DNA of 40,313 nt from positions 1 through 40,313 of the forward strand of contig CBDDTI010000164.1 of assembly GCA_965233585.1 (NCBI GenBank), read 5' to 3'. The notes under the pieces were generated by a model. It worked only from the letters and a program-made list of their open reading frames with translations, was not told the origin of the DNA and ran no database searches. This DNA comes from a bacterium. GTDB taxonomy: Bacteria > SAR324 > NAC60-12. Below are positions 3-23,151 of this stretch, in pieces; position 1 is the first letter of the stretch; every line of letters begins with the position of its first letter. Position numbers and translations under genes: made by a program.

Positions 3-1401
3 CTTGTTGGAAGTCCTGGGGAGAAAGTTTGTCTTGATTTTGTCGGTCCTCTTAAACCCACAAAGAAAGGACACACTTCCCTACTCACTGTGGTTGACGT
101 CTACACTAGATGGTTCACCGCCTGGCCGGTCAAGAACCAAAAAGCTGAAACTGTGATCAAATTCCTCGTCAGGGATTACTTTCCGGATCGTGGAGTTCCC
201 TCCGTGGTTCACTCCGATAACGGACCTGCCTTCATTGCGCATGTTTTTCAAGTGGCCATGGCAGCCTTTGACGTCCGAACGACCACTACTCCGGTTTATA
301 ATCCTAAAAGCAATACCGTCGAGCGTTTCCACCGAAGCATGAAACGCAAACTCACTGCTCTGATTCATGAGTTCGATGACGAATGGGATGAAGCTCTACC
401 TGCCACTCTTTTGGCAATGAGAACTTCGGTCAATAGAACCACTGGCTTTACCCCTTTCTACCTCGAACATGGTAGAGAAGCCAGACTACCCGTCGACATG
501 ATCGCCGGACCTCCTCCCATTCAGGCTGAACATCTCGATAAGTATACCGATAAGATTCGGAACCAATTCGCTAAAGCTTTTTCTGTCGTTGCTGAACGTC
601 AAAATTCCTACATAATGCGCCAAAAGGAGCTATATCGGGAAAGGCAACACAAGATCAATATCGATGACCTTGTTTGGCTCTTCACTGACCGAGCCAATCC
701 GAACCTCAACCGAAAATTCCAATCCTTTTGGTCTGGACCTTATAAAGTCATTAGGCAACTCTCCAACACTATCTTCGAGATCGAATCTTATGGAAGATGG
801 ACTAAAAACAAAGTCATCACTTCCGCTGCAGTCGACAGGCTCAAGAAATGTTACATCACTGACCCTGATACCAATCTTGGTGTTCCAGTAGAATTAACTG
901 CTACGGATGTCCGTCCGTACTTTGAAGATCAAGAACTACTGGGTAGGTTACCTGCGTCCGAATTTGCTCCACATGTTTTCGATAAGGAACAAGAACTTCC
1001 AATGACGTTGCCATCGCCTTCTCCAAGGGATGACGTCCCGATAGTCCCGTCAGTTCCTCCAACTGAGGTACAACCTATCGACCCTCCGGTTTCCGCACCG
1101 GTTACAATTCCGGAACCCACAACTACGGTTCCAACAACTATGGATCCGCTTCCGGAACCTCTTCCAGAAACTGTCATCACTCCGAAAACTGAACCCCAGG
1201 GGGTATCAGAACCTCGACGAGGTCGCGGACGACCTCCTGGCAGAGAAGAACAAACCAAAGTCTTGTCCTAACTGCACGCCAAGTGTCCCATGCGTCGATC
1301 ATTGCACACGGTGCAAAACCGGTTCCGCATGTGAACAGCACACTACAAGACAGAGATGTGCTAGATGTACTCGAACTCGTACATGCCCAGCTCACTCATA
1401 A
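3..1401 (+). CDS. pol: Pol C-terminus (integrase core, GPY/F, AT-hook, 3x Cys3His tail); +1 frameshift near 1245
   Basis: CLDFVGP, HSDNGP, VERFH, FWSGPYKV. Removing the extra G in GGC AGA G AAG restores KNKPKSCPNC...CPAHS* ending at 1401, matching element B. Confidence 0.9.
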
Positions 1402-1406: not shown

Positions 1407-1442
1407 TATAAAAGGCCTCTCCTTGGATGACCTCTTTCAGTT
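1407..1442 (+). promoter_or_regulatory. Putative internal env promoter (TATA box + Inr), or splice acceptor
   Basis: TATAAAA at 1407 and TCAGTT with its A at 1439 (32 nt apart); same spacing in element B. Confidence 0.6.
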
Positions 1443-1463
1443 TATTTCCTACTTTCGTTTAAT

Positions 1464-4400
1464 ATGAAAGTACTACTACTCTGTTTATCCTTCTTCACTA
1501 TTGTCTTCAGTGAAGAAAAGCCATACTATATTCCTTCTGATTACTACGATCTTTGGACAGTCATTGGTCGTAATTCTTCCGGACAACTTTACTTTAATCC
1601 TACTTCGGATTCCAGACGTGTCTTCATTTGGAAACCCAACAATGGTTCGGTTCCTCCGTCGCTCATCTTCGAAAATCACCCGAAGATTCTGCAAAATAAT
1701 CTTCCGACAACTTCCTCAGGAATTTTTGAGGAAACTGTTTCGCCGAATATTCATAGCACTTCTTCATCAACTCCTGAGAAGATTGAGGAAACGCTTTCCA
1801 CCGCACGTTCTTCCGTACCACCTTCAATTAACCCTCCAACAACTTCGGCATTAGAACTTCCTCCGAAAAGGAAACCCAAGAACGTTACTACAAGACAAGC
1901 AGGTACGAATTTTTTGCAATTGCATGAAACTCTGAGACGTGCTAAGTTGGCAAGCAAGCTTAATCGGCAACCAAGTGCCCATAATCTTACCCTTCCTCAG
2001 ACCAGAAATGGTACTCATGAACTCCCTTCGCCTAGCACAGACAAAATTGTCTACGCTAAAGACGAAGTTAGCCTTACCAAAGAGAGTTCTCGTCTTTCTT
2101 ATCTTCGGAAAACGAAACGACGAGTCAAGCGGCAAATCTCTCCTGATGTTGCAACTGAGCTCAACCTCAACGATGCCCAGTTGAATAGCTTGCAGGCTCA
2201 AGTCAATCGAAGATTCCTTGTATGCTACGATTGCGCTAATCCTCAAGAGGTAAAACCTATAAGCTCTTTTATTAGAGATCCCTGCGAACCCATAGCGGAT
2301 GATCAACAAGACAATTATGAGATTGATGATGCTGCACAGTATCAAATTGTTCAATATGAAACCCGAAGGGAATTCAAAGGCACCCGGTGTGAACGTTTCA
2401 TCACGCAATTTACTTATTACTGTGGAAACGCTGACCATTCCAGTCCATATCCGCAGGAGACGTTTTACCATAAACCAAAAGCCCTTCATTGGGACCAATG
2501 CAAGGAACTTGCCACTTTAGGGCGTTACATCGCCGGTGACGACCAGACTTATGAAGTTGCGATTAACACCCGGACCGAAGTCCCGTACTTTGCCTTCGGA
2601 TCCGCCACCGCCTACACAGGGATCGCGGGAAATCAGATCACATGTTCCGGTCACACCATGATGATCGATGGCAAGGAAATCCACCATATGGTCATGTTTG
2701 TCATCGAAGAGATCCTCTACCGAGAAGAAAAATTTGTCACCAGTGACGACGAAGACACCGTTATCGCGCACTACGATAATGTGCGACTAACTTGCCCAAT
2801 TGAAGACCAAAGATGCATAGGCGGCGACGTCTCGTATGTCTGGCGTGTCCCTCTAAAGGAACATTGCCCATTGTACCATATCCGGACATTCAAAGGCCAA
2901 ATGGTTGAACATCAGATCAAAGCTCTTACTATCCAGAAGACCAAGATCGTCATGTCCAACGATCAAGCTCATGTGAGGTTTGTCATTAAAGGAGAAAAAG
3001 ACGAATGCGATCAAACTTTCCTAGCAACCAACTATCCGGATATCCTCATCCGGAAAACCATGGTCAATGGCGTCTTAGATGGTAATCTTGTCAAAAGAAC
3101 TCTACCCAAAGACGAGTTACAATTGAGCAACTTCATTACCAATCGAGACGATTACGTTTTTCATGCTATCAACAGAAAACTCAAACGAGAATTTTTCTCT
3201 GTGATCAGAGATGACTGTCGAGAAAATCTGCGAAAGATGAAGACTGAACATTTTCTGGAGAGACAACTTCCTGGCCTCCACACTTACCGACTCGGTGGCT
3301 CCAATTATCTCACTGCTGCTGGAGAAGTAGCATACTTCTACAAATGTCGACCTCGACTTGTAGCAGCCATACGTGCCGACACTTGCTACGACGCTCTTCC
3401 GGTCGAAATCGCCAGTGAGAATGTCACCTTAACTACCTACTTTCAGGCAGATGGACACGAGGCTACTGTACCCAAATTCTACATAGAACCTCTTACTCAC
3501 AGGCTAACATCTGTAGCCAAGAAGGTACCCTGTTTGTCCAAATTCTTTGCCCGGTATCAGGACATCTTTGGACAATGGTTTGCTGTTACTCCAAGCATCT
3601 CGCCAACAGAACCACCCGGTAAGCTGGATCTGGAAACCCTCCGGAAGAAGGTTAGCTTCAGTGACTCCTTGGATGTCGATCTTTCTCGTGGAGGAATCTA
3701 CGAACCCGAAGCTGTCGATGATCTCATCACTTGGCTTGAAGGAAATAGACGCCAAGAGGTTGTCATGCATCAGATCACCAACCAGGTTGGCAGTCTCAGC
3801 CCAGGTCAATACATCACCCCACGTTTGATGTTTCCACCACATACGTTGCCTGGAGGATCCTGGCACACATTCATATTGGGAAAGCTTTGGGGCGCTATTC
3901 GCGGATTGGGTGAGATCTTTTCCTCTATTTTTGGCCTCTTGATAGTTGGCCGACTTTTTTGGTATTTGATCAAAGTTCTTATGAACTGCAGTTATATCCA
4001 TAGCGTGCACGGTTGCTCAGCCCAGCTCGCTTGGTCTTTCTGTACCGAAGTCTTCTTTACTAGGCTATATAGGAAAGAACAACGATCAACTGCGGAAAGA
4101 TCCGACAATGATCCTAGCGACAAGCCGAATTCTCATGTACGAAATCGTATATTCAACTTCGGCAATATCTTTTCGCGGAACGTTGACGATAACAACAGAC
4201 CCGAAACTCCAAGCGTCGGAATTCCCATTCCGATGAATCCTCTTCGACGCAGTCACTCCATTTCTCATTTGAGGAAAGATACTGTTTCGACTTGCCCGAA
4301 TCGTTTGCAAGCTCAGCTCGATCGAGCTATTGCTGCTTTTCAACCTTGCCCTCCGGGAATGCCAAGGTCACCTTTCCCTCCAGATTATGTAAACGACCAA

Positions 4401-4658
4401 AGGGTCGGATCTCCGTTAGACGGAACTAGGACGACACCGTCCGCTCCGGTTGACACAAACGAAGTCGCCAGAGATGGCATCGAACCACCTCCGTTACCTG
4501 GACGAATCACTCCCGCAGCAAGAACCGTCCGAACTCCTAACCGATTCGCTTTTACTCCCATTCCTGATGCCGTACCAAATATACCTCCTGTTCCCGCTCG
4601 GGAACCGGTCATTAATAGGACGCCAAGTGGCGATCCGCCTCCTCTCCCTGGTCGATAA
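1464..4658 (+). CDS. env: Env-like glycoprotein, chuvirus-G/class III fusion-like
   Basis: Signal peptide, S/T/P-rich mucin-like region, furin-like KRRVKR, YDC...QIVQ...C...YYCG..DH, AAGEVAYFYKC...CYDALPV, TM segment, long Pro-rich tail. Confidence 0.8.
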   Translation: MKVLLLCLSFFTIVFSEEKPYYIPSDYYDLWTVIGRNSSGQLYFNPTSDSRRVFIWKPNNGSVPPSLIFENHPKILQNNLPTTSSGIFEETVSPNIHSTSSSTPEKIEETLSTARSSVPPSINPPTTSALELPPKRKPKNVTTRQAGTNFLQLHETLRRAKLASKLNRQPSAHNLTLPQTRNGTHELPSPSTDKIVYAKDEVSLTKESSRLSYLRKTKRRVKRQISPDVATELNLNDAQLNSLQAQVNRRFLVCYDCANPQEVKPISSFIRDPCEPIADDQQDNYEIDDAAQYQIVQYETRREFKGTRCERFITQFTYYCGNADHSSPYPQETFYHKPKALHWDQCKELATLGRYIAGDDQTYEVAINTRTEVPYFAFGSATAYTGIAGNQITCSGHTMMIDGKEIHHMVMFVIEEILYREEKFVTSDDEDTVIAHYDNVRLTCPIEDQRCIGGDVSYVWRVPLKEHCPLYHIRTFKGQMVEHQIKALTIQKTKIVMSNDQAHVRFVIKGEKDECDQTFLATNYPDILIRKTMVNGVLDGNLVKRTLPKDELQLSNFITNRDDYVFHAINRKLKREFFSVIRDDCRENLRKMKTEHFLERQLPGLHTYRLGGSNYLTAAGEVAYFYKCRPRLVAAIRADTCYDALPVEIASENVTLTTYFQADGHEATVPKFYIEPLTHRLTSVAKKVPCLSKFFARYQDIFGQWFAVTPSISPTEPPGKLDLETLRKKVSFSDSLDVDLSRGGIYEPEAVDDLITWLEGNRRQEVVMHQITNQVGSLSPGQYITPRLMFPPHTLPGGSWHTFILGKLWGAIRGLGEIFSSIFGLLIVGRLFWYLIKVLMNCSYIHSVHGCSAQLAWSFCTEVFFTRLYRKEQRSTAERSDNDPSDKPNSHVRNRIFNFGNIFSRNVDDNNRPETPSVGIPIPMNPLRRSHSISHLRKDTVSTCPNRLQAQLDRAIAAFQPCPPGMPRSPFPPDYVNDQRVGSPLDGTRTTPSAPVDTNEVARDGIEPPPLPGRITPAARTVRTPNRFAFTPIPDAVPNIPPVPAREPVINRTPSGDPPPLPGR

Positions 4659-5566
4659 CGACTCCAGGAGATCTATATAAATTACAAAGGATCAAAATTG
4701 ACCATAGTAATGATCGTAAAATAATAATAATCTTAATAATAACATCAACAATCGAAACCAATCATCAACAAGTCGAAGTTCTTTGAAGTCTGACGAACAC
4801 GATCCGCTCTGAGTCTACCTGTAATCAACATAGGCAAAGCCCGGACCTGATCACCCGGCAGATCCTTCATCCAGTTTCAACTTTTCAACGTGGAGAACAT
4901 TTCCCGTTTACATGATTTCTTTTCTTCACCATTGACTGACTTTTCAATGGCCCGTTACAAAAGAAAAACATTCACAAAGGGGAAATCAAGCCCTATCCTG
5001 GTTCAGCGCATGCACTGTGTTCCTTAACACTTCGTCAGCGTACGATATAGTTTCCCTCGAGAGTTAAAGTAGCATCATTCCAGTTTTCTGAAAATCAATG
5101 CACCACCCACGCTCAAGCAGACAAACTACAACGACTTCAAACGCGTACTTGCTTAGCATCTACAGCCTCTTCCTCAGTGACCCTCACGCCTCACTGCACC
5201 GAAAGCCGTTACGATGCGACGCGACGCACTTCGACAATTCACAAATACATCTTCCAAATTGTGCCTCACGCACAACACCCACAAGAATTCAGTTTCTTCA
5301 ACTCCCGTCACACGGCACGGTCATCCGTGTAATCCTGATAATGTCTATTGGGAAACCTCAATGGTAGAAGCTCCAACGTAGACATGGAATTCATCGTCTT
5401 TACGTCAACTTGAATCATTGAAGTCCCTGATTGCTCTTCGTAGATCTTACATACCCTTTCCCGACATTGGGTGTTTCAAGGCCCTTACTCTCCACTTTCG
5501 ACTCCCAGATTGTGATGGTTTGGAAATGGCATTTCAAGAATACATCTCCGAAGACTTCAAGACGTT

Positions 5567-5700
5567 CTAGACCAAGTCTCTGATCCGTCATCCTTGGCTA
5601 GACGCCTTCTCGAACTCCTAGACCAAGTCTCTGATCCGTCATCCTTGGCTAGGTGCCTTCCTCAATTCTAGGGCTGAGTCTCTGATTCGTCATCCTCGGC
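5567..5700 (+). repeat. ~51-bp tandem repeat (about 2.7 copies) in the 3' non-coding tract
   Basis: ctagaccaagtctctgatccgtcatccttggc at 5567 and 5618, degenerate copy at 5668. Confidence 0.9.
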
Positions 5701-6659
5701 CCGACCATTCGCCAGAAGTTACTGTCCAATTGAAGGATTTCAAGCAACACGAGAAATCGATCGAAGATTCCCATGGAAGTTCAGCATTCACAGTATCCGT
5801 TCCTATGAGTCCACATCTTCCTTCATTTTTTCTCTCAGTTCCAACCAGTCTCCGCTCTGGTTGCTCAGCTCCTTCAAACTTTTTCTGGTCTCTCAGGATT
5901 AGGTTGGCATTTACAGAGCAATGGTCCAATTGTCTTTCAAAGGTTTGAGAAGAGATTCAAGCGCCGAAGCCAAAATTACCATGTCCAGCTTCAAGCTTCG
6001 ACCAATTCATCATCCTCGTCTTCTTCGATGTTCTCGTACTCCTACTACTTGCATCCAATAGACCAAGCATTGAGCATTGAAGCATCCTGCCTTACACGCA
6101 TGAGGCCTTACCTTGAGTTTGAAACAGTCCTCCTCCCACTCCGGATGACGGACATCCCTACAATTCTTCAGGGGAAGGAATTCTAGTTGCTGTTAGCTTT
6201 GCTGTTGCTTCCTTTTCTGTTGCTGTCATCGGCTCTGTTGTAATCGCAAATAAGGTTCAAGAGATCAATCGAAGAACGCATACCAGTTCTTCTGCCAGCG
6301 CGAATTCTACAGTTCGCCAGAAGAACACATCTACTCCAAATATGACAACGTAACAAGCTAATGTCTACAAGGTATGGAAATCAGCATAGTGATGTCAAAT
6401 TTGCCTCCAAGACCATACGCTACTCAGGGCTCATGTGCTCCTGGACATCATTCAGAACATTTTCAACGCAAGCCAAGATCCGTCTGACTTGCCAGTTGGC
6501 TCAAGAAGATCATTTTGCAAAGGCGAAGAATCGTATTGCATAATGGGTATCCTATTACTAAGAAGAAATCATGTTAACTTATTGAGGAAGCCTCATATTA
6601 ATTATCTCAAAGCTAATTGTATGTCGTAAGCAACGTCCTTTATCTTCGGACAATTCCGC

Positions 6660-6692
6660 TTCTATTTCCTCAATTTTCTTCTTGGGGGTACA
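6660..6692 (+). other. U-rich tract plus short polypurine tract (GGGGG) before the 3' LTR
   Basis: ttctatttcctcaattttcttcttgggggtaca|TG, identical in element B. Confidence 0.65.
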
Positions 6693-7124
6693 TGAAGGGG
6701 CCAGGTTAATTACCTAAGTTTTATGTTCATAAACTTCCCCCTTCCTAAAAGTGAACTTTTCCTTCTTCTTTTTGTGCTTGCTAAAGCGACACCCAATTAA
6801 CCGCCATGAACCGGTCTGGTTAAAGTCAACTCCCAATTCTTGAGAACTGTTCATCTTCTCTCTTAATGGGGTCACCCATGTAAGAGCTACAACAAGTCCA
6901 CGCCTAGCTACGATGCTTTGTTGTCATATGATCTATACTGTATTTAACAAAAGCATAATGGATATATTTTGCCTCCCACTTTTGCGAGTCCCAACGAGAT
7001 TTCGCAAAACTTGTTTTACTTCGTAAAATGTGAAGTGAAATAAATTCAGATAAGATTTAGCATTCACTTGAGAAAGTCATACGTTATTTCTAGACTCAAC
7101 ATATAAATACCTCCCGACCTTTCA
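6693..7124 (+). repeat. 3' LTR of element A (432 bp)
   Basis: Starts TGAAGGG, ends CCTTTCA; homologous to both LTRs of element B. Confidence 0.92.
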
Positions 7125-8512
7125 ATATGCTTGAAATGTTGAGGTGCATTTCTCCAAAAATTGAAATATATAACTAAATACAGGATAATTGCTTATGACA
7201 ATATTAAATATAAATTTTACTCAATTATAAGAAAACCGAAAAAATCTTCAGCCATTAGCCAAATCAGTTATCGCCGTTCTTTGAACAATGTTCAAATGCA
7301 ATCTCGGTGCCAAAAATGGTTCACTTGTTACCCATGTAACCCTGTACAAAGCAAACATTTTTTTTTACCAAAATTATGAGTAAAAGCAAAATTTTCTCAG
7401 GTTTGTTCATTTGGCACAAAGGTATAGTTGTAAAGCGAAGATTAGTGGAGGCCAATGTCTCAAGTGGCACAAAATTGCCCTTTTTGTCTCATGATTTCAT
7501 TCGCCATCCCAGCAGCGACCTAAAGCTTCCATCTATTCTTGCCTCCTGTCATTTATGAATTTGTGTCCATTCCATCCCTATTTTTATTCTTTTATTATTC
7601 TTCATAAGAGAAAAAGACGGCAAGGAGAATCGATCTCCCAGGTTTTTCTTGTCACATTGGCACTTTTGTGGATGGTTAATATCGTCCAGCTTCAAATTTT
7701 TTGGTCAAGCTGCCTCTCTATCGAGTTTAGGGAATTGGTAGAGCTTGGATTTCATCCAGAGATCCTGAGTTCAAATACTTGCATATTTCTCAGAATATTT
7801 TTATTGCAATGTGCTTTGAAGATTTGTTTATGAATGATATTGCTATATTAATCAAGAAGGTGCCAATAAAAAATGACAAAAGGAAAATCTCGATCCTTAC
7901 AAATGTCTTTAAGACCGTGTTGCTCAACTACCTAGAGCACTTGATGCATGTAAAGCCCATTAAATTCCCCTCAATATTTTTAAATTAAGCAATCAAAATT
8001 TTATTTGTAATTTTAATATACTTTACTGGCATCTTTTAATTTTGTTGCTATTAAAGAATATTAAGCTTTCAAATTAGCCTTTTATGGTATGTAGTAGCTA
8101 TGACGTCATTAAAAAAGTTATGACATATTTGCGAAAATGTTTCAATAAATAAAGAAATATATCTTCTTTTGATGATTGTATTACATTCTGATTGGCCGAG
8201 GCCTCCAGAGAAAGGAAGGGGTGGGATCAATAATCACACTGAGACACTTCACCAATACTATTCTGAGGGGTTATGTACAAGTTCCCGTCCAGTTGTTTCT
8301 TCTTTGCAGCTATGGTCATTCTTCGGTTTAGTCAAAGTAAACAAACCTCCTCTATCTGATTCGTGCGTTGAAATTATTTAGGTATTTTTTTACATGCACG
8401 AACAAGGTTGGTGAATGAAGCAAGCACGTGGAGATTTCCATCCATGAAATTTTCAGCAATTTTCATCTTTTGCAAGACATCGTGGTCGAATGGATGAACC
8501 CTCTTCCTCTTA

Positions 8513-8921
8513 GAAAGGTCGGGAGGGTTTTATAACGAGGCTTAGAAATAACGGACGACTTTCGCAAGTGAATGCTAAATCTAATCTGAATTTATTTCAC
8601 TTCTTTTGATTACGAAGTAAAACGAGTTTTGTGGTCACGAGTTTTGTTCCCACAAAAGCATATCTTATTGATAAGTGAGCATGACAAACAAAGGCAACAA
8701 GTAAGGCGTCGTTGACTGGAGTTGAAAAGTGCTTAAGCGCGTGACACCAGAGTGAGGGGTGAGCGATTCTCGAGAATTGGAACTGACTCTTAACCAGACC
8801 GGTTCATGTCGGGTTAATTAGGTCGTCACTGTAGTTAAGCACAAAACGAGAAGGAAAACTTGCTTTTTAGAAGGGTGGATTTTATGAACATAAAATTTAA
8901 GTAATTAACCTGGACCCTTCA
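8513..8921 (-). repeat. 3' LTR of element B (terminal CA replaced by CT)
   Basis: Near-identical to 22534-22945 apart from a few small indels/substitutions. Confidence 0.95.
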
Positions 8922-8954
8922 TGTACCCCCAAGAAGAAAATTGAGGAAATAGAA
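8922..8954 (-). other. U-rich tract plus short PPT of element B
   Basis: 33-nt identity to 6660-6692, directly abutting the LTR. Confidence 0.65.
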
Positions 8955-10137
8955 ACGGAACGTCCAAGAGTGTTTGGACTTGAGGACGTTGCATATGAGC
9001 TTTGAGAAAAGCTATTGTTCGCATACCGAATTGTTTCTTCTTAAGGGCAAAATATTCAAAAATCAGGATACTCATTATGCACTTCTCAAGATCAATACGA
9101 TTCTTCGCAATGGTGTCTTGAGTCTTGAGGTCTTGAGGTGAACCAAGGCGTTATTTTAACAGTAAACTGAATCTGAGCGTGAATTTTCATCTTCTGATGA
9201 GTCGGACGGTTCCTAGCTTGTCTTGTGGAAGTTATGCTGAATGATGCCCAGGAGCACATGAGCCCTGAGTAGCGCGTGATTTCGGAGGCAAGTTTGACAT
9301 CATTGTTCTAACTTCGGACTTCTACGTTGTCATGTTTGGTGCTGATGAAGGATTCGGCAAATGTTGAATTCGCACTGGCAAGGGAGAACTCTAACTAAGT
9401 ACTCCAAGTGACTTAATGAGGACACCGGAGATGGTGGCTGGTTGATATTTGCAATGGCTTGAATCCTACGATTGATCTCTTGATCCTTATTTGCGGTTAC
9501 AACAGAGACGATTGGTGCAACAGAAAAGGAAGCAACAGCAATGGCAATAGCAACTACCGCTGAGGAAGGTACTAGTCTACGACTTTATACCCAATTGTGC
9601 GGAGAAGCTAGAACTTCTTTCCCTGAGGAATTTCAAGAGGCAGGGCCAGCGAGGCAAATTGCTTCAATGTTCAGTACTTGACCTATTGTGTGAGGCTTGG
9701 AAGGAATCAGAGACCAATGATTTGGACGATGATGAGGAATGGTCGAAACTTGAAGCTGGACATGGTAACTTTGACTTCGGGTGTTCGATAGCCTTATCCT
9801 CAAACCTTTGAAGGACTATTGGAACAGGACTGTGATTTTCGTGCTGACGTAGCTTTGGACGATGATGCATTTGGGTTTCTGGGCGGCCAGAAAACCATTT
9901 GTGAAAAGTTATGAAGGACTTGAGCCACAATACCGAGGATCCATGCTGGAATTGAGACAAAAAATGAAGGAAGATACCGACACGCAGGACCGACTTCAGT
10001 GGCCGTCGATCCCGATGGTCTAACAAGAATCTTCGCGGTTGCCAATCCAGAGGATGCAAGAAGATGTCGCGGCTTAGAATCCTTTAATTGGACAGTAATC
10101 TTCGGACAATTGCTGAGTCAGTGATGAGGAGCTATGA

Positions 10138-10222
10138 CCAAGGATGACGGGTCAGAGACTTGGTCAAGGAGCTTAAGTGAGACGTCTTGCCGAGGATGAC
10201 GGATCAGAGACTTGGTCAAGAA
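10138..10222 (-). repeat. ~52-bp tandem repeat (2 copies), homologous to 5567-5700
   Basis: aggatgacgg(g/a)tcagagacttggtcaag occurs twice. Confidence 0.85.
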
Positions 10223-11052
10223 CGTCTTGAAGTCCTGGGAGATGTATTCTTGAAATCTTTGGTGCCAAGCATATGGAGAACACCTAAGACGTCAGAACCC
10301 AAGGTTTGTTGAAGTGCAAAAGCTGTGAGTGGTCGAAGTTGTCTTCATGTCGAGGCTAAGTTGAGACTTTTCCTTCAATCATTGATGGTTACACGGAAGA
10401 CCGTTCCGTGTGACGGGAGTCAGAGGACTGAGTTCTTGTGAGGCACAATTTGGACGGTGTATTTGTGAGCGTCGAAGTTGCGTCGCGTCGCATCGTGAAG
10501 GCTTTCGGCGCAATTGGGTTTGTAGAGAACTGCTGAGGAAGAGGCTGTAGATGCTAAGCGAGTACGCGTTTGAAGTCGTTGTAGTTTGTCTACTTGAGCT
10601 TGGGTGGTGCTTTGAATTTCAGAAACTGGAATGGGGCCACTTGAACTCTCGAGGGAAACTATATTGTACGCTGACGAAGTGTTGAGAACACAGTGCAGGC
10701 GCTGAATCAGTATAGGGCTTATTTTCCCTTTGTAGATGTCTTCTTCGTTACTGGGTCATTGAAAAGTCAGTCAATGGTGAAGGAAAGAAATCATGTAAAC
10801 GGAAAATGTTCTCCACGTTGAAAGGTTGAAACTGAATGGAGGATCTGCCGGGAGATCAGGTCCGGGCTTTGCCTATGTTGATTCCAGGTAGACTCAGAGC
10901 GGATCGTGTTCGTCAGACTTCAAGTACTTCGATCATTGTTGATGATTGGCTTTTGATGTTGATATTATTATTATTATTATTTTACGATTAGGCTTTTATT
11001 ACAATAACCAATGTTGATTCGTTGTAATTTATATATAAGTCTCCTGGAGTCG

Positions 11053-14000
11053 TTATCGACCGGGGAGAGGAGGAGGATCGCCACTTGGCGTCCTATTAAT
11101 GACAGGATCCCTATTGGGAATAGGAGGAATTCTGGCTTCTGGAGTTACAATCGGAGTGAAAGCAAATCTATTGGGAGTTCGAGTTCGTTCTGGCAATGGA
11201 GGTGGTTCTGGTACGGCTCGGGAAATTTCATTTACATCCACAGGAGCGGATGGTGTTGCTCTAGTTCCGTCTAAGGGAGATCCGACCCTTTGGTCGTTTA
11301 CATAGTCCGGAGGGAAGGGAGATCTAGGCATTCCCGGAGGACATGGTTGAAAAGCAGCGAAAGCTCTGTCAAGCTGGGACTGCAGACGGTTCGGACAAGT
11401 CGATACAGTATCTTTTCTCAGATGAGAAACGGAGTGACTGCGTCGAAGAGGATTCATCGGAACAGGGATTCCGGTGCTTGGAGTTTCCGTTCTGTCAGTG
11501 TCTGCTGACATTCTTTGAGAAAATATTACCAAAGTTGAATATACGGTTTCGTACGGGAACTTTGGTTTGGAAGTAGGGTCATTGTCGGATCTTTCCGCAG
11601 ACGACTTTTGTTCTCTTCTGTATAGTCTAGTGAAAAAGACTTCGGTACAAAAAGACCAAGCGAGCTGGGCTGAACAACCGTGCACGCTATGGATATAACT
11701 GCAGTTCATCAGAACCTTTATCAGATACCAAACAAGGCGGCCAACTATCAAGAGGCCAAAAATAGAAGAGAAGATTTCACCCAATCCCCGAATAGCACCC
11801 CATAATTTTCCCAATATAAATGAGTGCCAAGATCCACCGGGCAATGTGTGCGGAGGAAACATTAACCGTGGAGTAATGTACTGACCGGGACTGAGATCAC
11901 CAACTTGTTTGGTGATTTGATGCATGATAACCTCCTGGCGTCTGTTTCCTTCTAGCCAGGTGATGAGATCATCGACAGCTTCAGGCTCGTAGATCCCTCC
12001 TCGGGACAAGTCGACATCTGAAGAATCATCAAAAGTAGCCTTTTTTATGAGGGCTTCAAGATCAAGTTTGCCTGGTGGTTCAGTTGGTGAAATGCTGGGA
12101 GTGACAGCGAACCATTGGCCGAAAAGGTCTTGATAACGGGCGAAGAATTTCGACAAACAAGGGACCTTCTTGGCTACAGAAGTTAGCCTATGAGTTAAAG
12201 GCTCAATGTAGAACCGAGGTACGATGGCTTCATGACCGTCGGCTTGAAAGTAGGTGGTCAGAGTGTCATTCTGACTGGCAATTTCGACCGGTAACGCATC
12301 GTAGCAAGTGTCGGCTCGGATGGCTGCGACAAGGCGAGGTTGGCACTTATAAAAGTAAGCTACTTCTCCAGCAGCGGTAAGGTAGTTAGATCCACCAAGT
12401 CGGTAGGTATGAAGACCTGGAAGTTGTCGTTCCAAAAAGTGTTCGGTCTTGATTTTGCGGAGAGTTTCTCTACAATCGTCTCGGAGTACGGAAAAGAATT
12501 CTTGTTTCATCTTCCGGTTGATGGCATGATAGACGAAATCGTCACGATTGGTGATGAAGTTGCTCAGTTGCAACTCGTCCTTAGGCATCGGTCGTTTCAC
12601 AAGGTTGCGGTCGACAGCGCCGTTAAGCATCGTATCTCTGATCATGACATCCGGATAGTTGGTGGTAAGGAACGTTTGGTCGCATTCTTCCTTTTTTCCT
12701 TTAACAACAAAACGAACATTAGACTGATCAGTGGATATTACAATCTTATTAGTCTGGACAGTGAGTCCATCTACTTGATGCTTAATCATTTGACCTTCGA
12801 AGAATCGAATGTGGTATAAAGGACAATGTTCCTTTAATGGGACTCGCCAGACGTAGGTGACATCATTACCAACGCATTGTTGTTCCTCAATGGGACAAGT
12901 GAGGCGAACATTGTCGTAATGAGCGACAACAGTATCCTCGTTATCGCGGGTAACGAAAGTTTCGTCCCTGTACAGGATTTCTTCGGTGATGTACATGACC
13001 ATATGATGGATCTCTTTTCCATCGATCAGCATAGTATTTCCAGTGCAGGAAATTTGAGCACCCTGGAATCCCGTGTAAGCTGTAGCTGACCCAAAGGCAA
13101 AGTAAGGGACTTCGGTTCGGGTGTTGCGAGCGACAGTGTACGTCTTGTCGTCTCCAGCGATGTACTGACCGAGGGTGGCCAGATCGCGGCATTGTTCCCA
13201 ACGAAGAGTCTTGGGTTTCTTGTAATAGGTCTCTTGGGGATATGGACTTGCGTGATCAGCATTTCCACAATAGTACGTGAATCTGGACGTACGAAGTTCA
13301 CAGCGAGTTCCTTTAAACTCTCTTCGAGTTTCGTATTGGACGATTTGATACTGCGCTTTGTCGCCAATCTCGTAGTTGTCTTGGTCATTAGCTCCAATCG
13401 GTTCACAAGGATCTTGAATGAATGAACTGATGGGTTTGACTTCCTGAGGATTGGCACAATCGTATCCCGTAAGGAATCGCCGATTGACTTGAGCTTGCAA
13501 ACTGTTCAGCTGGGCATCATTGAGGTTTAGCTCAGTGGCAGCATCAGGTGAGATTTGTCTTTTCAATCGCGTTTTCTCTTTCCGAAGCTGGTAGAGACGG
13601 GATCCTTCCCTCGTCAAATCTATTTCGTCTTTAGCATCGACAATTTCGGCAGTGCTAGGAGGACGAACTGTAGATGTTTCGTTCCTTTGAGGCGGAACAG
13701 GGAGGTTAGGAGTCGCTGGCTGAGGACTCAACGTTTTCATCATTTCTGCAAGTTGCAAGGAGCGATGTAGTTGTAACAAACTCATACCTGGTACGTTATT
13801 GGTAGTATTCTTGTGCTTCACAGGTGGAGGACGTTCTAAGGCTGCTGTTGCAACAGTGTCAGTTGAAAAGTGTCCGGAAGAATGTGTCTGGGGAAGTGTT
13901 TCCTCAATCTCCTCAAGAGTTGTTGGAGGAGTGTTAGGAACATTCGATGAAACAGTTCCCTCAAAAATTTCCGAGGGAGTTGTCGAAAGATCGTCTTGTA

Positions 14001-14226
14001 AAATCTCCGGATAGTCTTCAAAGAAGAGCGTCGGAGGTATTGAGGCATTGTTCGGCTTCCAGATAAAGATCCGTCGTGAATCCGGAGTCGGATTGAAGAA
14101 GAGTCGGCCTGTTGAATTACTCCCAACTACTAACCACAAATCGTAGTAGTCATAAGGAATATAAATAGGCTGTTTCTCGCCCAAGATAATGGCAATGAAG
14201 GATAACCAAAGAAGAGCAATCTTCAT
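11053..14226 (-). CDS. env: Env-like glycoprotein, chuvirus-G/class III fusion-like (start at MKIALLWL)
   Basis: Paralog of 1464-4658; signal peptide begins at ATG 14226; RLKR furin-like site; GYDC; TM segment. Confidence 0.8.
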   Translation of the reverse strand: MKIALLWLSFIAIILGEKQPIYIPYDYYDLWLVVGSNSTGRLFFNPTPDSRRIFIWKPNNASIPPTLFFEDYPEILQDDLSTTPSEIFEGTVSSNVPNTPPTTLEEIEETLPQTHSSGHFSTDTVATAALERPPPVKHKNTTNNVPGMSLLQLHRSLQLAEMMKTLSPQPATPNLPVPPQRNETSTVRPPSTAEIVDAKDEIDLTREGSRLYQLRKEKTRLKRQISPDAATELNLNDAQLNSLQAQVNRRFLTGYDCANPQEVKPISSFIQDPCEPIGANDQDNYEIGDKAQYQIVQYETRREFKGTRCELRTSRFTYYCGNADHASPYPQETYYKKPKTLRWEQCRDLATLGQYIAGDDKTYTVARNTRTEVPYFAFGSATAYTGFQGAQISCTGNTMLIDGKEIHHMVMYITEEILYRDETFVTRDNEDTVVAHYDNVRLTCPIEEQQCVGNDVTYVWRVPLKEHCPLYHIRFFEGQMIKHQVDGLTVQTNKIVISTDQSNVRFVVKGKKEECDQTFLTTNYPDVMIRDTMLNGAVDRNLVKRPMPKDELQLSNFITNRDDFVYHAINRKMKQEFFSVLRDDCRETLRKIKTEHFLERQLPGLHTYRLGGSNYLTAAGEVAYFYKCQPRLVAAIRADTCYDALPVEIASQNDTLTTYFQADGHEAIVPRFYIEPLTHRLTSVAKKVPCLSKFFARYQDLFGQWFAVTPSISPTEPPGKLDLEALIKKATFDDSSDVDLSRGGIYEPEAVDDLITWLEGNRRQEVIMHQITKQVGDLSPGQYITPRLMFPPHTLPGGSWHSFILGKLWGAIRGLGEIFSSIFGLLIVGRLVWYLIKVLMNCSYIHSVHGCSAQLAWSFCTEVFFTRLYRREQKSSAERSDNDPTSKPKFPYETVYSTLVIFSQRMSADTDRTETPSTGIPVPMNPLRRSHSVSHLRKDTVSTCPNRLQSQLDRAFAAFQPCPPGMPRSPFPPDYVNDQRVGSPLDGTRATPSAPVDVNEISRAVPEPPPLPERTRTPNRFAFTPIVTPEARIPPIPNRDPVINRTPSGDPPPLPGR

Positions 14227-14247: not shown

Positions 14248-14283
14248 GACTGAATGAGGCCTCCCCTCGATGGGCCTCTTATA
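14248..14283 (-). promoter_or_regulatory. Putative internal env promoter (TATAAGA + Inr TCAGTC)
   Basis: T of TATA at 14283 and A of Inr at 14251: 32 nt, as in element A. Confidence 0.6.
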
Positions 14284-14288: not shown

Positions 14289-17200
14289 TTATGAGTGAGC
14301 AGGACATGTCCGAGTACGAGTACACTTAGCACATCTTTGTCTTGCAGTGTGCTGTTCACATGCGGAACCGGTTTTGCATTGTGTGCAGTGAGTAACGCAT
14401 GGAAGATTGGGCGTGCAGTTAGGACAAGGTCTGGGCTTGTTCTTTCTGCCCGGAGGTCGTCCTCGACCTCTACGAGATGCTGGCTCCGTTTGGGGTTCAG
14501 CTTTAGGTACAACTGTGACTTCGGGAGGAGCTTCCGGAAGTGGTTCTGCGGTTACCGGAACAGTAACAGCAGGTTCAGGATCTTGCGGGACAGGTACAGA
14601 AACCGGAGGGTCAAAAGACTGTCCGTCAGCAAGGGGAGTGATAGGGACATCATCCCTAGGAGAGGGTGATGGTAACGTCATTGGAAGTTCTTGTTCCTTG
14701 TCAAAGACATGTGGAGCGAAGTCAGAGGCAGGTAGCCTTCCTAACAGCTCTTGGTCTTCGAAGTAAGGACGAACGTCTGTGGCAGTCAACTCTACTGGTA
14801 CGCCCAAGTTGGTGTCAGGATCGGTGACGTAGCACTTCTTGAGTCTATCGACAGCTGCGGAAGTGATGATCTTACTCTTAGTCCACCTTCCGTAGGACTC
14901 GATCTCGAAAATAGTGTTGGAAAGCTGTTTAACAACTCTGTAAGGTCCAGACCAAAAGGATTGGAACTTTCGGTTGAGGCTAGGGTTGGCTCGGTCGGTG
15001 AAGAGCCACACAAGGTCATCAATGTTGATCTTGTGTTGTCTTTCTCGATACAGCTCCTTTTGGCGCATTATGTAAGAATTCTGACGTTCAGTTACAACAG
15101 AAAAAGCTTTCGCGAATTGATTCCGAATCTTATCTGTGTACTTGTCAAGATGTTCGGGTTGAACAGGCGGAGGTCCAGCGATCATGTCGACAGGTAATCT
15201 GGCTTCTCTACCATGTTCAAGGTAGAACGGAGTGAAACCAGTGGTGCGGTTGACTGAAGTTCTCATTGCTAAAAGTGTAGCAGGTAGAGCTTCGTCCCAT
15301 TCGTCGTCGAATTCATGGATCAGAGCAGTAAGTTTGCGCTTCATGCTGCGATGAAATCGCTCAACAGTGTTGCTCTTGGGATTGTAAACCGGCGTAGTGG
15401 TAGTTCGAACATCAAAGGCTGCCATGGCCACTTGAAAAACATGTGCAATAAAGGCAGGTCCATTGTCAGAGTGAACTACTGAAGGAACGCCACGGTCTGG
15501 AAAGTAATCCCTAACTAGGAATTTGATGACAGTCTCAGCCTTCTGATTCTTAACTGGCCAGGCGGTGAACCAGCGAGTATAAACGTCAACGGCAGTGAGC
15601 AGAGAAGTATGTCCTTTCTTTGTTGGTTTGAGAGGTCCGACAAAATCGAGACAAATCTTCTCTCCAGGACTTCCAACAAGGTCATAACCATACGTATGGC
15701 GTTGAGCTTTTTTGTTGGATAGCTTCTGACAGCGAGGACATTTGAATACATATTCCCGGCAAAAGCTAACTAGACGGGGGAATATATACTTTAGCTGTAC
15801 ACAATCAGCCAGAGAATTTCCACCGGCATGATTTTTGCCATGGAAGGAAGCGAGAACCTTATTCCAGAGTTTCTCAGGAAGAGGAATCCGAACATCCTTT
15901 TCATTGGTGAAAGGAATGGGATTTCGAACGAGGAGGCCGGAAGGCAGAATTTCCAGATATTCGAAGCAATCAACATAAAACTTTTCATCTGGGTTGAGTA
16001 GCTTGTACTCTTGTGAGGTAGGTTTGTGCTGTTGTCTGACCCAGGCGGAGATCTTGGATAAAGTGATATCAGTCTGTTGTTTCTCAATGATATCGTCCTC
16101 ATAGGGACCTTGGGGAACCGGAAATTCGGTTTGGTGTGGAATGCGAGGATCAGTGTCATCGGATTCGCTGAGAGAATCCTCGTCTTCAGATTCTTGGCCA
16201 TCATCTTCAGGAGCTTCTCCTAGCAAGAGGATCTGATCATCGGCCAGGATCTCTTGAGCTTCCTTTTCAGAGAGGAAAGGAGCATGAGAGGTTCGAGACA
16301 AAGAATCCGCGTTACCATGCTTGGTACCGGCTCGATGTTGGATGTCGAAATCATAACTGCTGATGATTCTCAACCACCTCATCAAGATACCCTTAGGATC
16401 TTTTTGAGTTTTCAACCAAGATAAGGCAGAATTATCAGTACGGACAAGGAACTTTCTACCAGTCAGGAAGAATTTGTAGGTATCTATAGCGAAGATCAGA
16501 GCAAGTAATTCTCCCTTATGGGAAGCGTACTGGGATTCGCTTGGTTTCAGTCTGCGAGCGTTAAATGAAATGGGTCTTTCTGTCCCATCTTGGATCTGCG
16601 AGAGGACTGTACCTAACCCTTCGTGAGAATAATCAGTATCGACTATGAAAGGTTCGGAGCTATCAAAGTCAGGATAGGCCAACAACTGCGGAGACATGAG
16701 CAATTGTTTTAAAGACTCGAAGGAAGCAATTGCTTTAGGATCTTTTTCCAGGTCCAACTTGCGTGAACTTTCACTGGCACCTTTGAGATGGGCCATTAAG
16801 GGTGAAGCAATAATCGCAAAATTTTGGAAGTGACTTCGGTAATAGTTGCACTTTCCGAGAAAGGCTCTGAGATCCTTCAAAGTCTTGGGCAATGGCCAAT
16901 CCTTGATGATCTGAGAAAATTCAGGAGGAACAGATACCCCCTGGTCGGAGATTAGGTGTCCAAGGAATTTCACTTCCGTTTTGACCCAATCGGTCTTTTC
17001 CATATTGAGCCTTAACCCAGCCTTTTGTAACAGGACAAAAACCTGTTTAAGGGTATCAACATGTGTAGTTAGGTCAGGAGAGTGAATAAGAAGATCGTCA
17101 AAAAAGACGATGAGCTGAGATTTCGGAATCTCATGTAACACCTGAGTGACCAGTCGTGCCCAAGTATTAGGAGCACTGGTTAGCCCGAAGGGCATTCGAC

Positions 17201-18725
17201 AAAATTGATAAAACTTATCTAGAGCACAAAAAGAAAGCTTTTCGCGGTCAACTTCGCGAACGGGAATGGAGTGAAAAGCTTGGGCAAGATCCAGAGAAGT
17301 GAAAATTTTGCTTTTCCGAAGATAGCTTAAAAGCTCGATGATGTTTGGGATAGGAAAGGAGTCTTTTCGAGTGACAGAGTTAAGAGCTCGAAAATCAACT
17401 ACCCATCTCCATTTTCCATTCTTTTTTCGAACTGGGAGAAGAGGAAAATTCCAGGGAGAGACTCCTCCGGAACGAATAACACCATCTTTTAGCCATACGG
17501 CTATCTGTTCTTTAAGAGACTCCGTCAAACCAGGGTTGATCGGACGGTTCTTCAAGCGAATAGGTGGAAGTCCTTTGGGAGTGTAAACGGGATGCTCAAT
17601 GACATCAGTTCCACCGCAATTTCCTTCTCTATAGAAGACATCCCAAAAACTCATAATCAAATCAATTATTTGTCCAGAGGTGCGAGGGTTCTTCTGTAGG
17701 ATAGGATTATCGCGAAAGTTCAACACTTGTCGAATGTGTTCGCGTCGCTTCTCATGGGATGCGGGAGTTAGTTTACTGGTAGGAATATTGCTCATCCAAT
17801 CGGACGGTTTTGAAGGTTTTTCTGTAATGGTCATAACTTTAGTCATATTTATGACAGAGCGATGATGTTCTGGAATCAAGATAGTGCCAATATCACAGTT
17901 ACTGCTAATAGTCACGGAATGCGGAGATTCATTGAAAAAGTATACTTCGACCTCGTTTGTGTCGGAGATAGAAGTAATTTGTTCTAAAGAATTCAGACCG
18001 AAATAGATGTCATCCTGATCAGGATGAAGACTATTTATTTTGCGGATAAAAGAATCTTTAAAATTGAAAACAGAATCTGTAGGATCGTGTACTTCGGTTT
18101 CTTCTACGCGAACCGGAATAAGTTTCCCAGTTCTGGGTGGAATAGTTTGGCGCATCTTGCTGTAGGCGGTGGTAGATCGGTCGCCAATGGTAACGACATT
18201 AATCTGGGGAACTGAGTCGATTTGCTTCTTGAGACGTCGGCGAGCATGATTGATGTTCCGATACAACGGAAAACGAAGATTCTCTGGACTCTTTGAGAGA
18301 ATCCCTTGAGACAAAATTAAATCCAGGCCATGTTCAACCAAGAAAGGTAAGGAGATGTTGAGGCCGCAAGAAAGATGTTTGACGAGGACAAGTCGGGATG
18401 GTAACACATGTTCCTTCCCGGTGTCGTCAGGAATGTAAAAGTTAATAGAGGGAACAATTCCCACTATATTGATGCTAGAACCGACGGAAGCGGTGCCTAC
18501 TGGAGAACCAGTATATGGCTGATAATCCGTAATCGGGATCTTTTTAGCCACTGACAATGATAATGCGTTGCAGAAACTGTTGCCGCTATCGACAAGAGCC
18601 ATAACTGTTCGTCCATTGAGTCGAACAGGAAGAAGTTTGGGTAAAGAAGAAGAGATAGTCCGGCAGGAACTGATTAGATCCTTTGGGTCTTTTTGAGAGA
18701 AAATACCACTTAATGGCTGCGACAT
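14289..18725 (-). CDS. pol: Pol polyprotein: aspartic protease, RT, RNase H, integrase with AT-hook/Cys3His tail
   Basis: ALVDSG; WRWVVDFRALN, LDLAQAFHSIP, MPFGL, FFDD; FIVDTDYS..GLGTVLSQ; H..H..CPRC, DDE, GPY. Confidence 0.97.
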   Translation of the reverse strand: MSQPLSGIFSQKDPKDLISSCRTISSSLPKLLPVRLNGRTVMALVDSGNSFCNALSLSVAKKIPITDYQPYTGSPVGTASVGSSINIVGIVPSINFYIPDDTGKEHVLPSRLVLVKHLSCGLNISLPFLVEHGLDLILSQGILSKSPENLRFPLYRNINHARRRLKKQIDSVPQINVVTIGDRSTTAYSKMRQTIPPRTGKLIPVRVEETEVHDPTDSVFNFKDSFIRKINSLHPDQDDIYFGLNSLEQITSISDTNEVEVYFFNESPHSVTISSNCDIGTILIPEHHRSVINMTKVMTITEKPSKPSDWMSNIPTSKLTPASHEKRREHIRQVLNFRDNPILQKNPRTSGQIIDLIMSFWDVFYREGNCGGTDVIEHPVYTPKGLPPIRLKNRPINPGLTESLKEQIAVWLKDGVIRSGGVSPWNFPLLPVRKKNGKWRWVVDFRALNSVTRKDSFPIPNIIELLSYLRKSKIFTSLDLAQAFHSIPVREVDREKLSFCALDKFYQFCRMPFGLTSAPNTWARLVTQVLHEIPKSQLIVFFDDLLIHSPDLTTHVDTLKQVFVLLQKAGLRLNMEKTDWVKTEVKFLGHLISDQGVSVPPEFSQIIKDWPLPKTLKDLRAFLGKCNYYRSHFQNFAIIASPLMAHLKGASESSRKLDLEKDPKAIASFESLKQLLMSPQLLAYPDFDSSEPFIVDTDYSHEGLGTVLSQIQDGTERPISFNARRLKPSESQYASHKGELLALIFAIDTYKFFLTGRKFLVRTDNSALSWLKTQKDPKGILMRWLRIISSYDFDIQHRAGTKHGNADSLSRTSHAPFLSEKEAQEILADDQILLLGEAPEDDGQESEDEDSLSESDDTDPRIPHQTEFPVPQGPYEDDIIEKQQTDITLSKISAWVRQQHKPTSQEYKLLNPDEKFYVDCFEYLEILPSGLLVRNPIPFTNEKDVRIPLPEKLWNKVLASFHGKNHAGGNSLADCVQLKYIFPRLVSFCREYVFKCPRCQKLSNKKAQRHTYGYDLVGSPGEKICLDFVGPLKPTKKGHTSLLTAVDVYTRWFTAWPVKNQKAETVIKFLVRDYFPDRGVPSVVHSDNGPAFIAHVFQVAMAAFDVRTTTTPVYNPKSNTVERFHRSMKRKLTALIHEFDDEWDEALPATLLAMRTSVNRTTGFTPFYLEHGREARLPVDMIAGPPPVQPEHLDKYTDKIRNQFAKAFSVVTERQNSYIMRQKELYRERQHKINIDDLVWLFTDRANPSLNRKFQSFWSGPYRVVKQLSNTIFEIESYGRWTKSKIITSAAVDRLKKCYVTDPDTNLGVPVELTATDVRPYFEDQELLGRLPASDFAPHVFDKEQELPMTLPSPSPRDDVPITPLADGQSFDPPVSVPVPQDPEPAVTVPVTAEPLPEAPPEVTVVPKAEPQTEPASRRGRGRPPGRKNKPRPCPNCTPNLPCVTHCTQCKTGSACEQHTARQRCAKCTRTRTCPAHS

Positions 18726-22476: not shown

Positions 22477-22522
22477 AATGGAGTATTAAGCCAAAGGCTG
22501 TTTCCCCCCGAAAAGGGTTCGC

Positions 22523-22531
22523 CTGCCACCA
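22523..22531 (-). other. Primer binding site, probably tRNA-Leu
   Basis: TGGTGGCAG 2 nt after the LTR end, complementary to the ...CUGCCACCA 3' end of tRNA-Leu(AAG/UAG). Confidence 0.7.
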
Positions 22532-22533: not shown

Positions 22534-22945
22534 TGAAAGGTCGGGAGGTATTTTATAACGAGGCTTAGAAATAACGGACGACTTTCGCAAGTGAATGCTA
22601 AATCTAATCTGAATTTATTTCACTTCTTTTGATTACGAAGTAAAACGAGTTTTGTGGTCACGAGTTTTGTTCCCACAAAAGCATATCTTATTGATAAGTG
22701 AGCATGACAACAAAGGCAACAAGTAAGGCGTCGTTGACTGTGGAGTTGAAAAGTGCTTAAGCGCGTGACACCAGAGTGAGGGGTGAGCGATTCTCGAGAA
22801 TTGGAACTGACTCTTAACCAGACCGGTTCATGTCGGGTTAATTAGGTCGTCACTGTAGTTAAGCACAAAACGAGAAGGAAAACTTGCTTTTTAGAAGGGT
22901 GGATTTTATGAACATAAAATTTAAGTAATTAACCTGGACCCTTCA
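22534..22945 (-). repeat. 5' LTR of element B (412 bp)
   Basis: TGAAGGG...CCTTTCA on the minus strand, followed by the PBS. Confidence 0.96.
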
Positions 22946-23151
22946 TTGTAATAAACATAGGTTGGGTTCCTAGGTTTTGGAGCCTTAGGTTGTCGGTGCA
23001 GAGTATAGGTGTCCGACGCCTGCAGCCATTTCTTTATTTTATTTATGGGTATGGTCCCGTTAAAATGATTAAAAACGCGGTTCGGCGATGAAAAAGCAAA
23101 AGGCGAGCCGGGCGAAGTGTAAGCTTTTAAAAATTCGCGTTTAGTAATCAT
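22946..23151 (-). pseudogene. N-terminal fragment of Polinton retroviral-like integrase, truncated by the LTR
   Basis: YTSPGSPFAFSS...IKKWLQASDTYTLHRQP...RNPTYV matches the usual Polinton integrase N-terminus; frame runs into the LTR at 22945. Confidence 0.8.

Follow-up and report, generated by a model that had tools for sequence, protein, structure and literature searches.

Drosophila errantiviruses (gypsy, ZAM and Idefix; Metaviridae, genus Errantivirus) combine a Gypsy backbone with an env gene, and infection of neighbouring cells has been proposed for them. Their Env is of the F type (class I, baculovirus/paramyxovirus F-like) and is made from spliced RNA. The mosquito BEL/Pao element Anakin carries a Chuviridae-like glycoprotein (Dezordi et al., 2020, PMC7642597), and capture of a chuviral glycoprotein (G) in BEL/Pao was the state of knowledge in that work and its successor (Dezordi et al., 2023, PMC10084718). 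[quoted passage not shown] In that survey, which was limited to intact elements in the reference genomes of May 2023, a Chuviridae-like glycoprotein structurally similar to gB lay beside a gypsy pol in 114 elements, and env and pol were argued to have diverged together since before the bilaterian split. In this study, we analysed 40,313 nt of DNA filed under a bacterial genome (contig CBDDTI010000164.1 of assembly GCA_965233585.1), the whole of which is called the window here. It carries two long terminal repeat (LTR) retroelements, A and B, each with a long env gene. We consider it very likely that both are members of the env-carrying Ty3/Gypsy family, that is, endogenous retrovirus-like ancient errantiviruses with an HSV/gB-type ENV. 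The genome that carries them would be that of a marine animal, for which a scleractinian coral is the most likely candidate. Judged by their sequence, the elements are real and well preserved, and probably active.

The resemblance to the ancient errantiviruses, as far as these are described in PMC13524379, extends over several characters. Both have a Ty3/gypsy gag-pol-env order between LTRs and a gB-like env with signal peptide, transmembrane (TM) segment and cysteine bridges; both are multi-copy, occur in non-insect Metazoa including Cnidaria, do not always possess a furin site, and have an env that diverges with pol. An earlier note on this DNA, made from the letters alone, had regarded chuviral G capture as known only in BEL/Pao elements, and this view is superseded by PMC13524379. 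Anakin is likewise an LTR retroelement with a downstream chuvirus-type env (PMC7642597), but its backbone is BEL/Pao and its host an insect, whereas the window elements are Ty3/Gypsy, probably in a cnidarian. The Drosophila errantiviruses share the Gypsy backbone plus env; however, the window Env belongs to family PF24664, is preceded by a TATA-initiator pair, and is not the baculovirus F-like class I protein by which Errantivirus is strictly defined.

The two elements lie tail to tail, A on the plus and B on the minus strand. Element A begins within pol because its 5' part is lost to the contig start; the integrase part of pol, env, about 2 kb of non-coding DNA and the 3' LTR remain. Element B is complete, in the order LTR, gag, pol, env, about 2 kb, LTR. 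A and B show about 79% DNA identity and therefore represent two subfamilies rather than recent copies of one another. The features are as follows.

3..1271, plus strand: 3' part of the element A pol, integrase core and GPY/F region (rve E 3.3e-18, Integrase_p58_C E 6e-4)
1262..1401, plus strand: Cys-rich C-terminal tail of the element A pol, readable only in a frame other than that of the upstream pol (in frame in B)
1407..1443, plus strand: element A pol-env spacer, with TATAAAAG (1407-1414) and a TCAGT initiator-like motif (A at 1439)
1464..4658, plus strand: element A env, 1064 amino acids (aa)
4659..6692, plus strand: element A post-env region, about 2 kb, without conserved open reading frame (ORF), with patches conserved with B
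6693..7124, plus strand: element A 3' LTR, TG...CA, 83-87% identical to the B LTR in two blocks
7125..8511, no strand: AT-rich non-coding DNA between the elements, 1.4 kb, nearly unique in the assembly
8512..8921, minus strand: element B 3' LTR, with a G5 tract just upstream (8930-8926); its last base is unlike that of the 5' LTR
8922..11052, minus strand: element B post-env region, about 2.1 kb, without conserved ORF
11053..14226, minus strand: element B env, 1057 aa, laid out like that of A (PF24664 E 5.9e-53)
14248..14283, minus strand: within the 63-nt element B pol-env spacer, TATAAGAG (14283-14276) and TCAGT (A at 14251)
14289..18725, minus strand: element B pol, 1478 aa, with protease, reverse transcriptase (RT), RNase H, integrase and Cys-rich tail
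18760..22476, minus strand: element B gag-position ORF, 1238 aa, with a capsid-like part near residues 200-480
22514..22531, minus strand: primer-binding-site-like TGG... sequence, 2 nt after the 5' LTR
22534..22945, minus strand: element B 5' LTR, 98.6% identical to the 3' LTR
22946..39039, no strand: Maverick/Polinton-like flank, its integrase gene cut at the junction with B

The frame of the A pol tail was judged by a three-frame translation of 1181-1500 set against B; the preserved A pol is 85% complementary to the B pol at 14641-15680. The LTRs are of the TG...CA kind, those of B differing by 1 mismatch and 4 gaps over 417 positions, and the G5 tract is all that stands at the polypurine tract position before the 3' LTR. 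No conserved ORF was found in the 2-kb post-env regions, and Rfam gave 0 matches across the whole window.

The assignment rests foremost on the env protein. Two intact env ORFs of about 1060 aa had been proposed before, and they are indeed present, at 1464..4658 in A and at 14226..11053 in B (counted from the MK start; the stop-to-stop frame starts at 14325). The motifs named for them stand at identical residue numbers in both copies: a furin-like RVKR (A) or RLKR (B) at 220-223, YDC at 255-257, QIVQ at 294, YYCG at 318, AGEVAY at 619 and CYDALPV at 641. Hydropathy, calculated by a crude window method, shows a hydrophobic leader at the N terminus and, beyond it, one strong segment near 814-840, in agreement with the predicted signal peptide and TM; leader, large ectodomain and one C-terminal TM correspond to a type I topology. 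Accordingly, the A protein reads as a leader (1-17), a variable Ser/Thr/Pro-rich N-terminal domain (18-219), the furin-like site, a PF24664 core (249-883), the TM segment, and a 225-aa tail with PPDY at 972 and PSAP at 992, both of which recur at the same residues in B.

Both proteins match Pfam PF24664 (Monjiviricetes_fusion) at a level well outside chance, with E 6.4e-49 in A and 5.9e-53 in B. The scores are 166.9 and 180.3 bits, where the curated cut-off is 27, and the matches span profile positions 19-617 of 653. PF24664 is the sole match at E<=0.01. Neither baculovirus F nor a non-viral protein was the best profile match, so the chuvirus-like identity given to the envelope in the earlier note is borne out. 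PF24664 and no other family was also found in 20/20 aligned env homologues, which reach down to 25% identity; in this alignment 11 Cys columns are invariant and three outer ones (C210, C217 and C456) are at least 90% conserved. The closest look-alikes in a protein-language-model comparison (Atlas) were PF24664 clusters of Negarnaviricota, followed by rhabdovirus G and herpes gB clusters. An env profile matched 2303 clusters (50% identity) at E<=1e-3. By sequence, therefore, Env is assigned to the Monjiviricetes/chuvirus-type fusion glycoprotein family. It shares with the G of Jingchuvirales and other Monjiviricetes the fusion core, at E of about 1e-50 and with nearly full profile coverage. Unlike these viral proteins, it has a 220-aa variable domain and a furin-like site before the core and a 225-aa proline-rich tail after it, and it is DNA-encoded in a retroelement.

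The backbone is of the Gypsy type, as had been proposed. The B pol follows the Ty3-Gypsy order of protease, RT, RNase H and integrase (Asp_protease_2 33-70, RVT_1 432-590, RT_RNaseH 688-791, Integrase_H2C2 950-1002, rve 1020-1116, together with RT_RNaseH_2) and carries protease DSG at 46, RT FFDD at 541 and integrase HHCC at 962. The predicted GPY/F motif is found: GPY stands at residue 1260, where Integrase_p58_C matches weakly, with E values (1.3e-3 and 6e-4) that miss the Pfam cut-off. Among solved structures the best matches were Ty3 Gag-Pol (7q5b, E 1e-78) and Ty3 RT (4ol8, E 1.7e-60), followed by caulimovirus and foamy virus (about 1e-32), with HIV (about 1e-11) and murine leukaemia virus far behind Ty3. 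Named relatives are labelled transposon 412, Gag3-Pol3 or Gypsy integrase.

An Anakin-like BEL/Pao element, or an assembly artefact that placed a viral G beside an unrelated pol, would explain the same neighbourhood. BEL/Pao elements are present in the assembly (13 PF05380 matches) and the flanks of B do not match one site, both of which speak for such an origin. Against it, the window gag and pol are devoid of the BEL/Pao signature domains Peptidase_A17, DUF5641 and DUF1759, which the BEL/Pao pols of the assembly do carry; the latter have no PDB matches, whereas the window pol is closest to Ty3. The gag-pol-env order is present on three contigs, and pol and env form single ORFs elsewhere. In an RT-RNase H tree the window pol falls within a fully supported 12-row clade and not with BEL/Pao, which is 5.4 substitutions per site away, so the grouping with Belpaoviridae that would have spoken for this alternative was not observed. 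The tree had 43 rows (3 assembly copies, 2 BEL outgroups and 38 of the 120 homologues listed, hand-picked for spread and names) and no Copia or GyDB references, so that it does not place the pol in a named Gypsy clade. We regard a BEL/Pao or artefactual origin as extremely improbable.

Further copies support the reading as an env-carrying Gypsy family. A full-length relative of B lies at another locus (contig C408; 97.8% identity over 12.6 kb), a third intact and more distant copy has an env 52% identical (C11), and degraded or distant G-bearing remnants occur on contigs C640, C231, C288, C670 and C523. In all 4 copies of the family in the assembly, env directly follows pol. In a public collection, env clusters formed at 90% identity have 33, 26, 12, 27 and 13 members, many full-length. 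Purifying selection on env had been expected from two diverged copies that retain the ORF. Our comparison of 1464-4658 with 11053-14226, made with our own Nei-Gojobori script, agrees with this: the ratio of nonsynonymous to synonymous divergence (dN/dS) was 0.096 over 1056 codons (dN 0.149, dS 1.55), a rough figure since the silent sites are saturated at a dS of about 1.5. By region, dN/dS was 0.30 in the N-terminal 234 residues, 0.18 in the tail and 0.05 in the TM region. For comparison, A and B pol gave 0.053 over 411 codons, and B against its C408 relative gave 0.10 in gag, 0.043 in pol and 0.04 in the env core. Env thus stands next to pol in all copies, is constrained and is multi-copy, and is therefore part of the element and needed for its spread.

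Alternatively, these might be ordinary intracellular retrotransposons, in which env is a passenger that is intact by youth or has been taken over for a host function. The B LTRs are 98.6% alike, so B is young, and no RNA run for the source sample is on record among 4 runs of 1 study. However, a dN/dS of 0.096, lower still in the core, between lineages saturated at silent sites is about as strong a constraint as that on pol; env lies inside the LTRs in every copy; and the elements are multi-copy, unlike a domesticated gene. A passenger or domesticated env is thus very unlikely, and env as a constrained part of the element is preferred.

The earlier note went further and proposed an independent env capture giving a potentially infectious new lineage. 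On this view a Gypsy element took up the G gene of an exogenous chuvirus in a separate and fairly recent event. Env clearly belongs to PF24664, and many members of its family stand alone as proteins of about 650-750 aa, as a viral G would; one 4.1-kb metagenome contig encodes a 697-aa G with no RT beside it. In addition, no clear Gypsy capture in arthropods appears in Dezordi et al. (2023; PMC10084718), in the part available. On the other side, gB-type env occurs in Gypsy elements of many phyla and diverges in step with pol, and a Chuviridae-like G adjoins gypsy pol in the 114 elements mentioned above (PMC13524379). Our own data fit the ancient linkage reported there. A separate Gypsy clade, with an RT 49% identical, encodes pol and env as one ORF, and its homologous env aligns at 25% identity through the TM and the first, membrane-proximal part of the tail. 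At least two further diverged Gypsy+G or G remnants are present in the assembly (C670 and C523), and the extra N-terminal domain, the furin-like site and the 225-aa tail are common to the family. A recent independent capture is therefore unlikely, and the claim of a newly founded lineage is not upheld.

The two remnants just named differ in structure. On C523 a 1607-aa ORF (L021:5071-9891, plus strand, equal to C523:37070-41890) has a distant PF24664 core behind about 800 residues of unknown sequence; this core is 25% identical to the window env (Pfam E 3e-43) and resembles the env part of the clade with pol and env in a single ORF (P0064). At C670:2336-6980 a G remnant comes after a degraded Gypsy RT (43% identity). 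The host therefore harbours several lineages that bear G. Metagenomes were also scanned. IMG/VR gave 112 pattern matches to the env profile, 0 of which were confirmed, and the Joint Genome Institute (JGI) metagenomes gave 3 loci. At one of these G follows an unknown ORF and at another it precedes gag-pol; neither of the two is an identifiable exogenous chuvirus. One JGI contig of 5560 nt (L033) carries a PF24664 env and, 680 nt later on the same strand, a gag (Retrotrans_gag) and a Gypsy-type RT, which represents either an env-gag-pol arrangement or two tandem elements.

Returning to the ancient-errantivirus reading, several details of Env suggest how it may work. The 220-aa N-terminal domain is variable and 34% Ser/Thr/Pro, and it is followed by RVKR/RLKR and then the conserved core, an order that resembles the surface/transmembrane subunit arrangement of retroviral envelopes. 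Class III proteins need no priming by cleavage. Among the 75 family representatives with an N-terminal extension, 25 have a furin-like site within 60 residues of the core, and this scattered occurrence agrees with the remark in PMC13524379 that the furin site is not always conserved.

PPxY and P(T/S)AP are the classic late-domain motifs that recruit the endosomal sorting complex required for transport (ESCRT). PPDY and PSAP occur together in the 225-aa cytoplasmic tail of both copies, a combination that shuffling the tails produces in 0.23% of cases. Among 20 close homologues whose tails reach 150 aa or more, 17 have at least one motif and 3 have none. Across the family, 37 of 99 scorable tails contain PPxY or P(T/S)AP, where shuffled tails would give 7.0 (PPxY 19 against 5.1; P(T/S)AP 19 against 2.0). 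This count was drawn from the 150 best representatives at 50% identity, 99 of which had a TM and 60 aa or more of tail, and is to be read with a crude TM finder and related sequences in mind. The B gag has one PSAP and no PPxY. The text of PMC13524379, in the part available, makes no mention of cytoplasmic tails or late domains, whereas the window env carries such motifs; two env motifs set against its supplements, as far as accessible, matched no sequence. A search of titles and abstracts gave no literature on late domains in the G or Env tails of such elements, and the Viro3D paper, in its accessible part, has no passage on class III or chuviruses.

In the pol-env spacer, a TATA box and a TCAGT-type initiator stand 32 nt apart in A, in B and its C408 relative, and in the degraded C640 copy, while the intervening bases differ; the C11 spacer has a weaker version. 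The pair suggests an internal env promoter. The CAG within TCAGT could instead be a splice acceptor; a scan of the initial 1.5 kb of B and its C408 relative gave no splice donor of the GTRAGW type. From these sequence patterns we infer that the layout, the tail motifs and the spacer may function as outlined next.

Gag and Pol would build a capsid that reverse-transcribes the RNA of the element. Env would be a membrane glycoprotein of type I, and its cleavage at the furin-like site would release or loosen the variable, receptor-binding-like N-terminal domain from the class III fusion core. Potentially, env is transcribed from its own TATA-initiator promoter in the spacer, and the long cytoplasmic tail recruits the ESCRT budding machinery via PPxY and P(T/S)AP. 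Env would thereby let particles exit a cell and enter a different one by fusion, as in a passage from soma to germ line, and selection would keep env because Env would carry particles between cells. It is tempting to speculate that Env is a self-contained bud-and-fuse cassette (own promoter, furin-released head, class III core, ESCRT-recruiting tail) that drives particle release in place of Gag, and that reef-building corals are host, in this family, to a retrovirus-like agent that is infectious today; this extended proposal is tentative and, in our estimation, rather doubtful.

Several observations count against the interpretation as intact ancient errantiviruses of a coral. Besides the saturation of silent sites, element A has been truncated, and the tail of its pol does not lie in frame. 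A PDB sequence search with env gave 6 chance-level matches (E of about 1) and a profile search 0, so that the class III fold is taken from family membership and from the account of the glycoprotein in PMC13524379. The gag-position ORF has no Pfam match above the cut-off (PNMA at E 0.0098 lies below it) and 0 PDB matches. Gag and pol are separate ORFs, and their frame relation varies from +1 in B to -1 in C408 to no overlap in C11. The primer-binding-site-like sequence fits none of the 116 tRNAs of the assembly; its longest match, 11 nt, is to a bacterial tRNA. A target-site duplication was looked for at both ends of B and none was found, and the two flanks (at 8512 and 22946) are not halves of one site, the left one being unrelated DNA. 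Finally, the host call depends on a single gene, which lies elsewhere in the bin on a different contig.

Some of these points can be qualified further. No CCHC knuckle was seen in the B gag-position ORF; its language-model look-alikes (Atlas) were Retrotrans_gag/Ty3_capsid at 0.92-0.95, which we treat as a lead only. A conserved gag-pol frameshift was considered and is ruled out by the frames differing between copies. As for the flanks, uninterrupted Polinton copies read differently left of the 22946 junction, and the mismatch suggests either that the DNA was rearranged or that the assembly path jumped from one locus to another inside the repeat. Among the joints listed (15 of 24), no sequencing-read join spans element B, and the loose read ends at 22946 are other copies of the flanking Polinton. 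The mismatch leaves the internal structure of the element unaffected, and the C408 copy confirms this structure.

The host is probably a scleractinian coral whose contig was mis-binned into a bacterial metagenome-assembled genome. The assembly has 12.0 Mb in 747 contigs, of which five large, gene-dense ones look bacterial, one with a bacterial COX1. The other 731 contigs (8.8 Mb) are short, mostly of low ORF density, and hold genes of animal type, among them cadherin repeats, a kinesin motor, TRIM-NHL and G-protein-coupled receptors. Contig C427 has an NRDP1 gene without introns, which shares 96.6% identity with its counterpart in Oculina patagonica and 93.5% with that in Desmophyllum pertusum, against 88-91% in other stony corals, 75% in the anemone Exaiptasia and 64% in Hydractinia. 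This places the animal DNA of the bin with the Scleractinia. The window likely comes from the same animal as C427, given the co-binning and the repeat families common to the contigs. As host markers, COX1 was bacterial only and actin was limited to short actin-like exons. The bin is rated 92.5% complete and 2.1% contaminated, yet many of its contigs carry stony-coral-like genes and eukaryotic transposons. Marker-based quality scores thus miss megabases of animal DNA here, a point of concern wherever genes are mined from bins of this kind.

Two other element types were noted. Intact BEL/Pao elements on contigs C68 and C212 have an extra long ORF downstream of pol (572 and 724+ aa) without Pfam match, at the following positions; possibly these are env-like genes of another kind.

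L017:817-2532, minus strand: extra ORF of a BEL/Pao element
L018:7830-10001, plus strand: extra ORF of a BEL/Pao element

The flank of B at 22946-39039 is a Maverick/Polinton-like element of about 16 kb with the following genes.

23576-24295: TFIIB-like protein, sub-threshold
24339-24899: homologue of the TATA-binding protein (TBP), unusual there (PF00352 E 1e-16; best PDB match archaeal TBP, E 3e-17)
24893-26233 and 26303-27637: two 445-aa paralogues, unexplained
27637-28122: adenain-like protease, weak (E 0.077)
32090-35655: protein-primed PolB in several ORF pieces
35671-36405: P-loop ATPase

Copies of it at 84-99.5% identity occur on at least 12 other contigs (C47, C530, C382, C435, C401, C426, C696, C589, C193, C246, C213 and C58). 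These run about 4.4 kb further, through an integrase with rve and chromodomain to an inverted copy of the 61-bp tandem repeats (terminal inverted repeat). A search of titles and abstracts gave no paper on Polintons with TBP and TFIIB.

Taken together, the elements add a new member to a kind that has already been published; the host group is likely new, and two leads on mechanism emerge. In the cnidarian rows listed in PMC13524379 (15/16), the hydrozoan Clytia alone has gB-type env, and all 13 elements from Anthozoa have the F type, whereas the host here is probably a stony coral; our search for literature on coral Gypsy-env elements found none. The host range of this env type would be widened by a stony coral with a gB/chuvirus-type element, since the published catalogue, in the rows listed, gives only F-type env for Anthozoa. 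The leads are the late-domain motifs in the Env tail, five-fold enriched family-wide, and the possible internal env promoter. If the bud-and-fuse cassette were true, it could explain the recurrence of this glycoprotein family on both Gypsy and BEL/Pao backbones.

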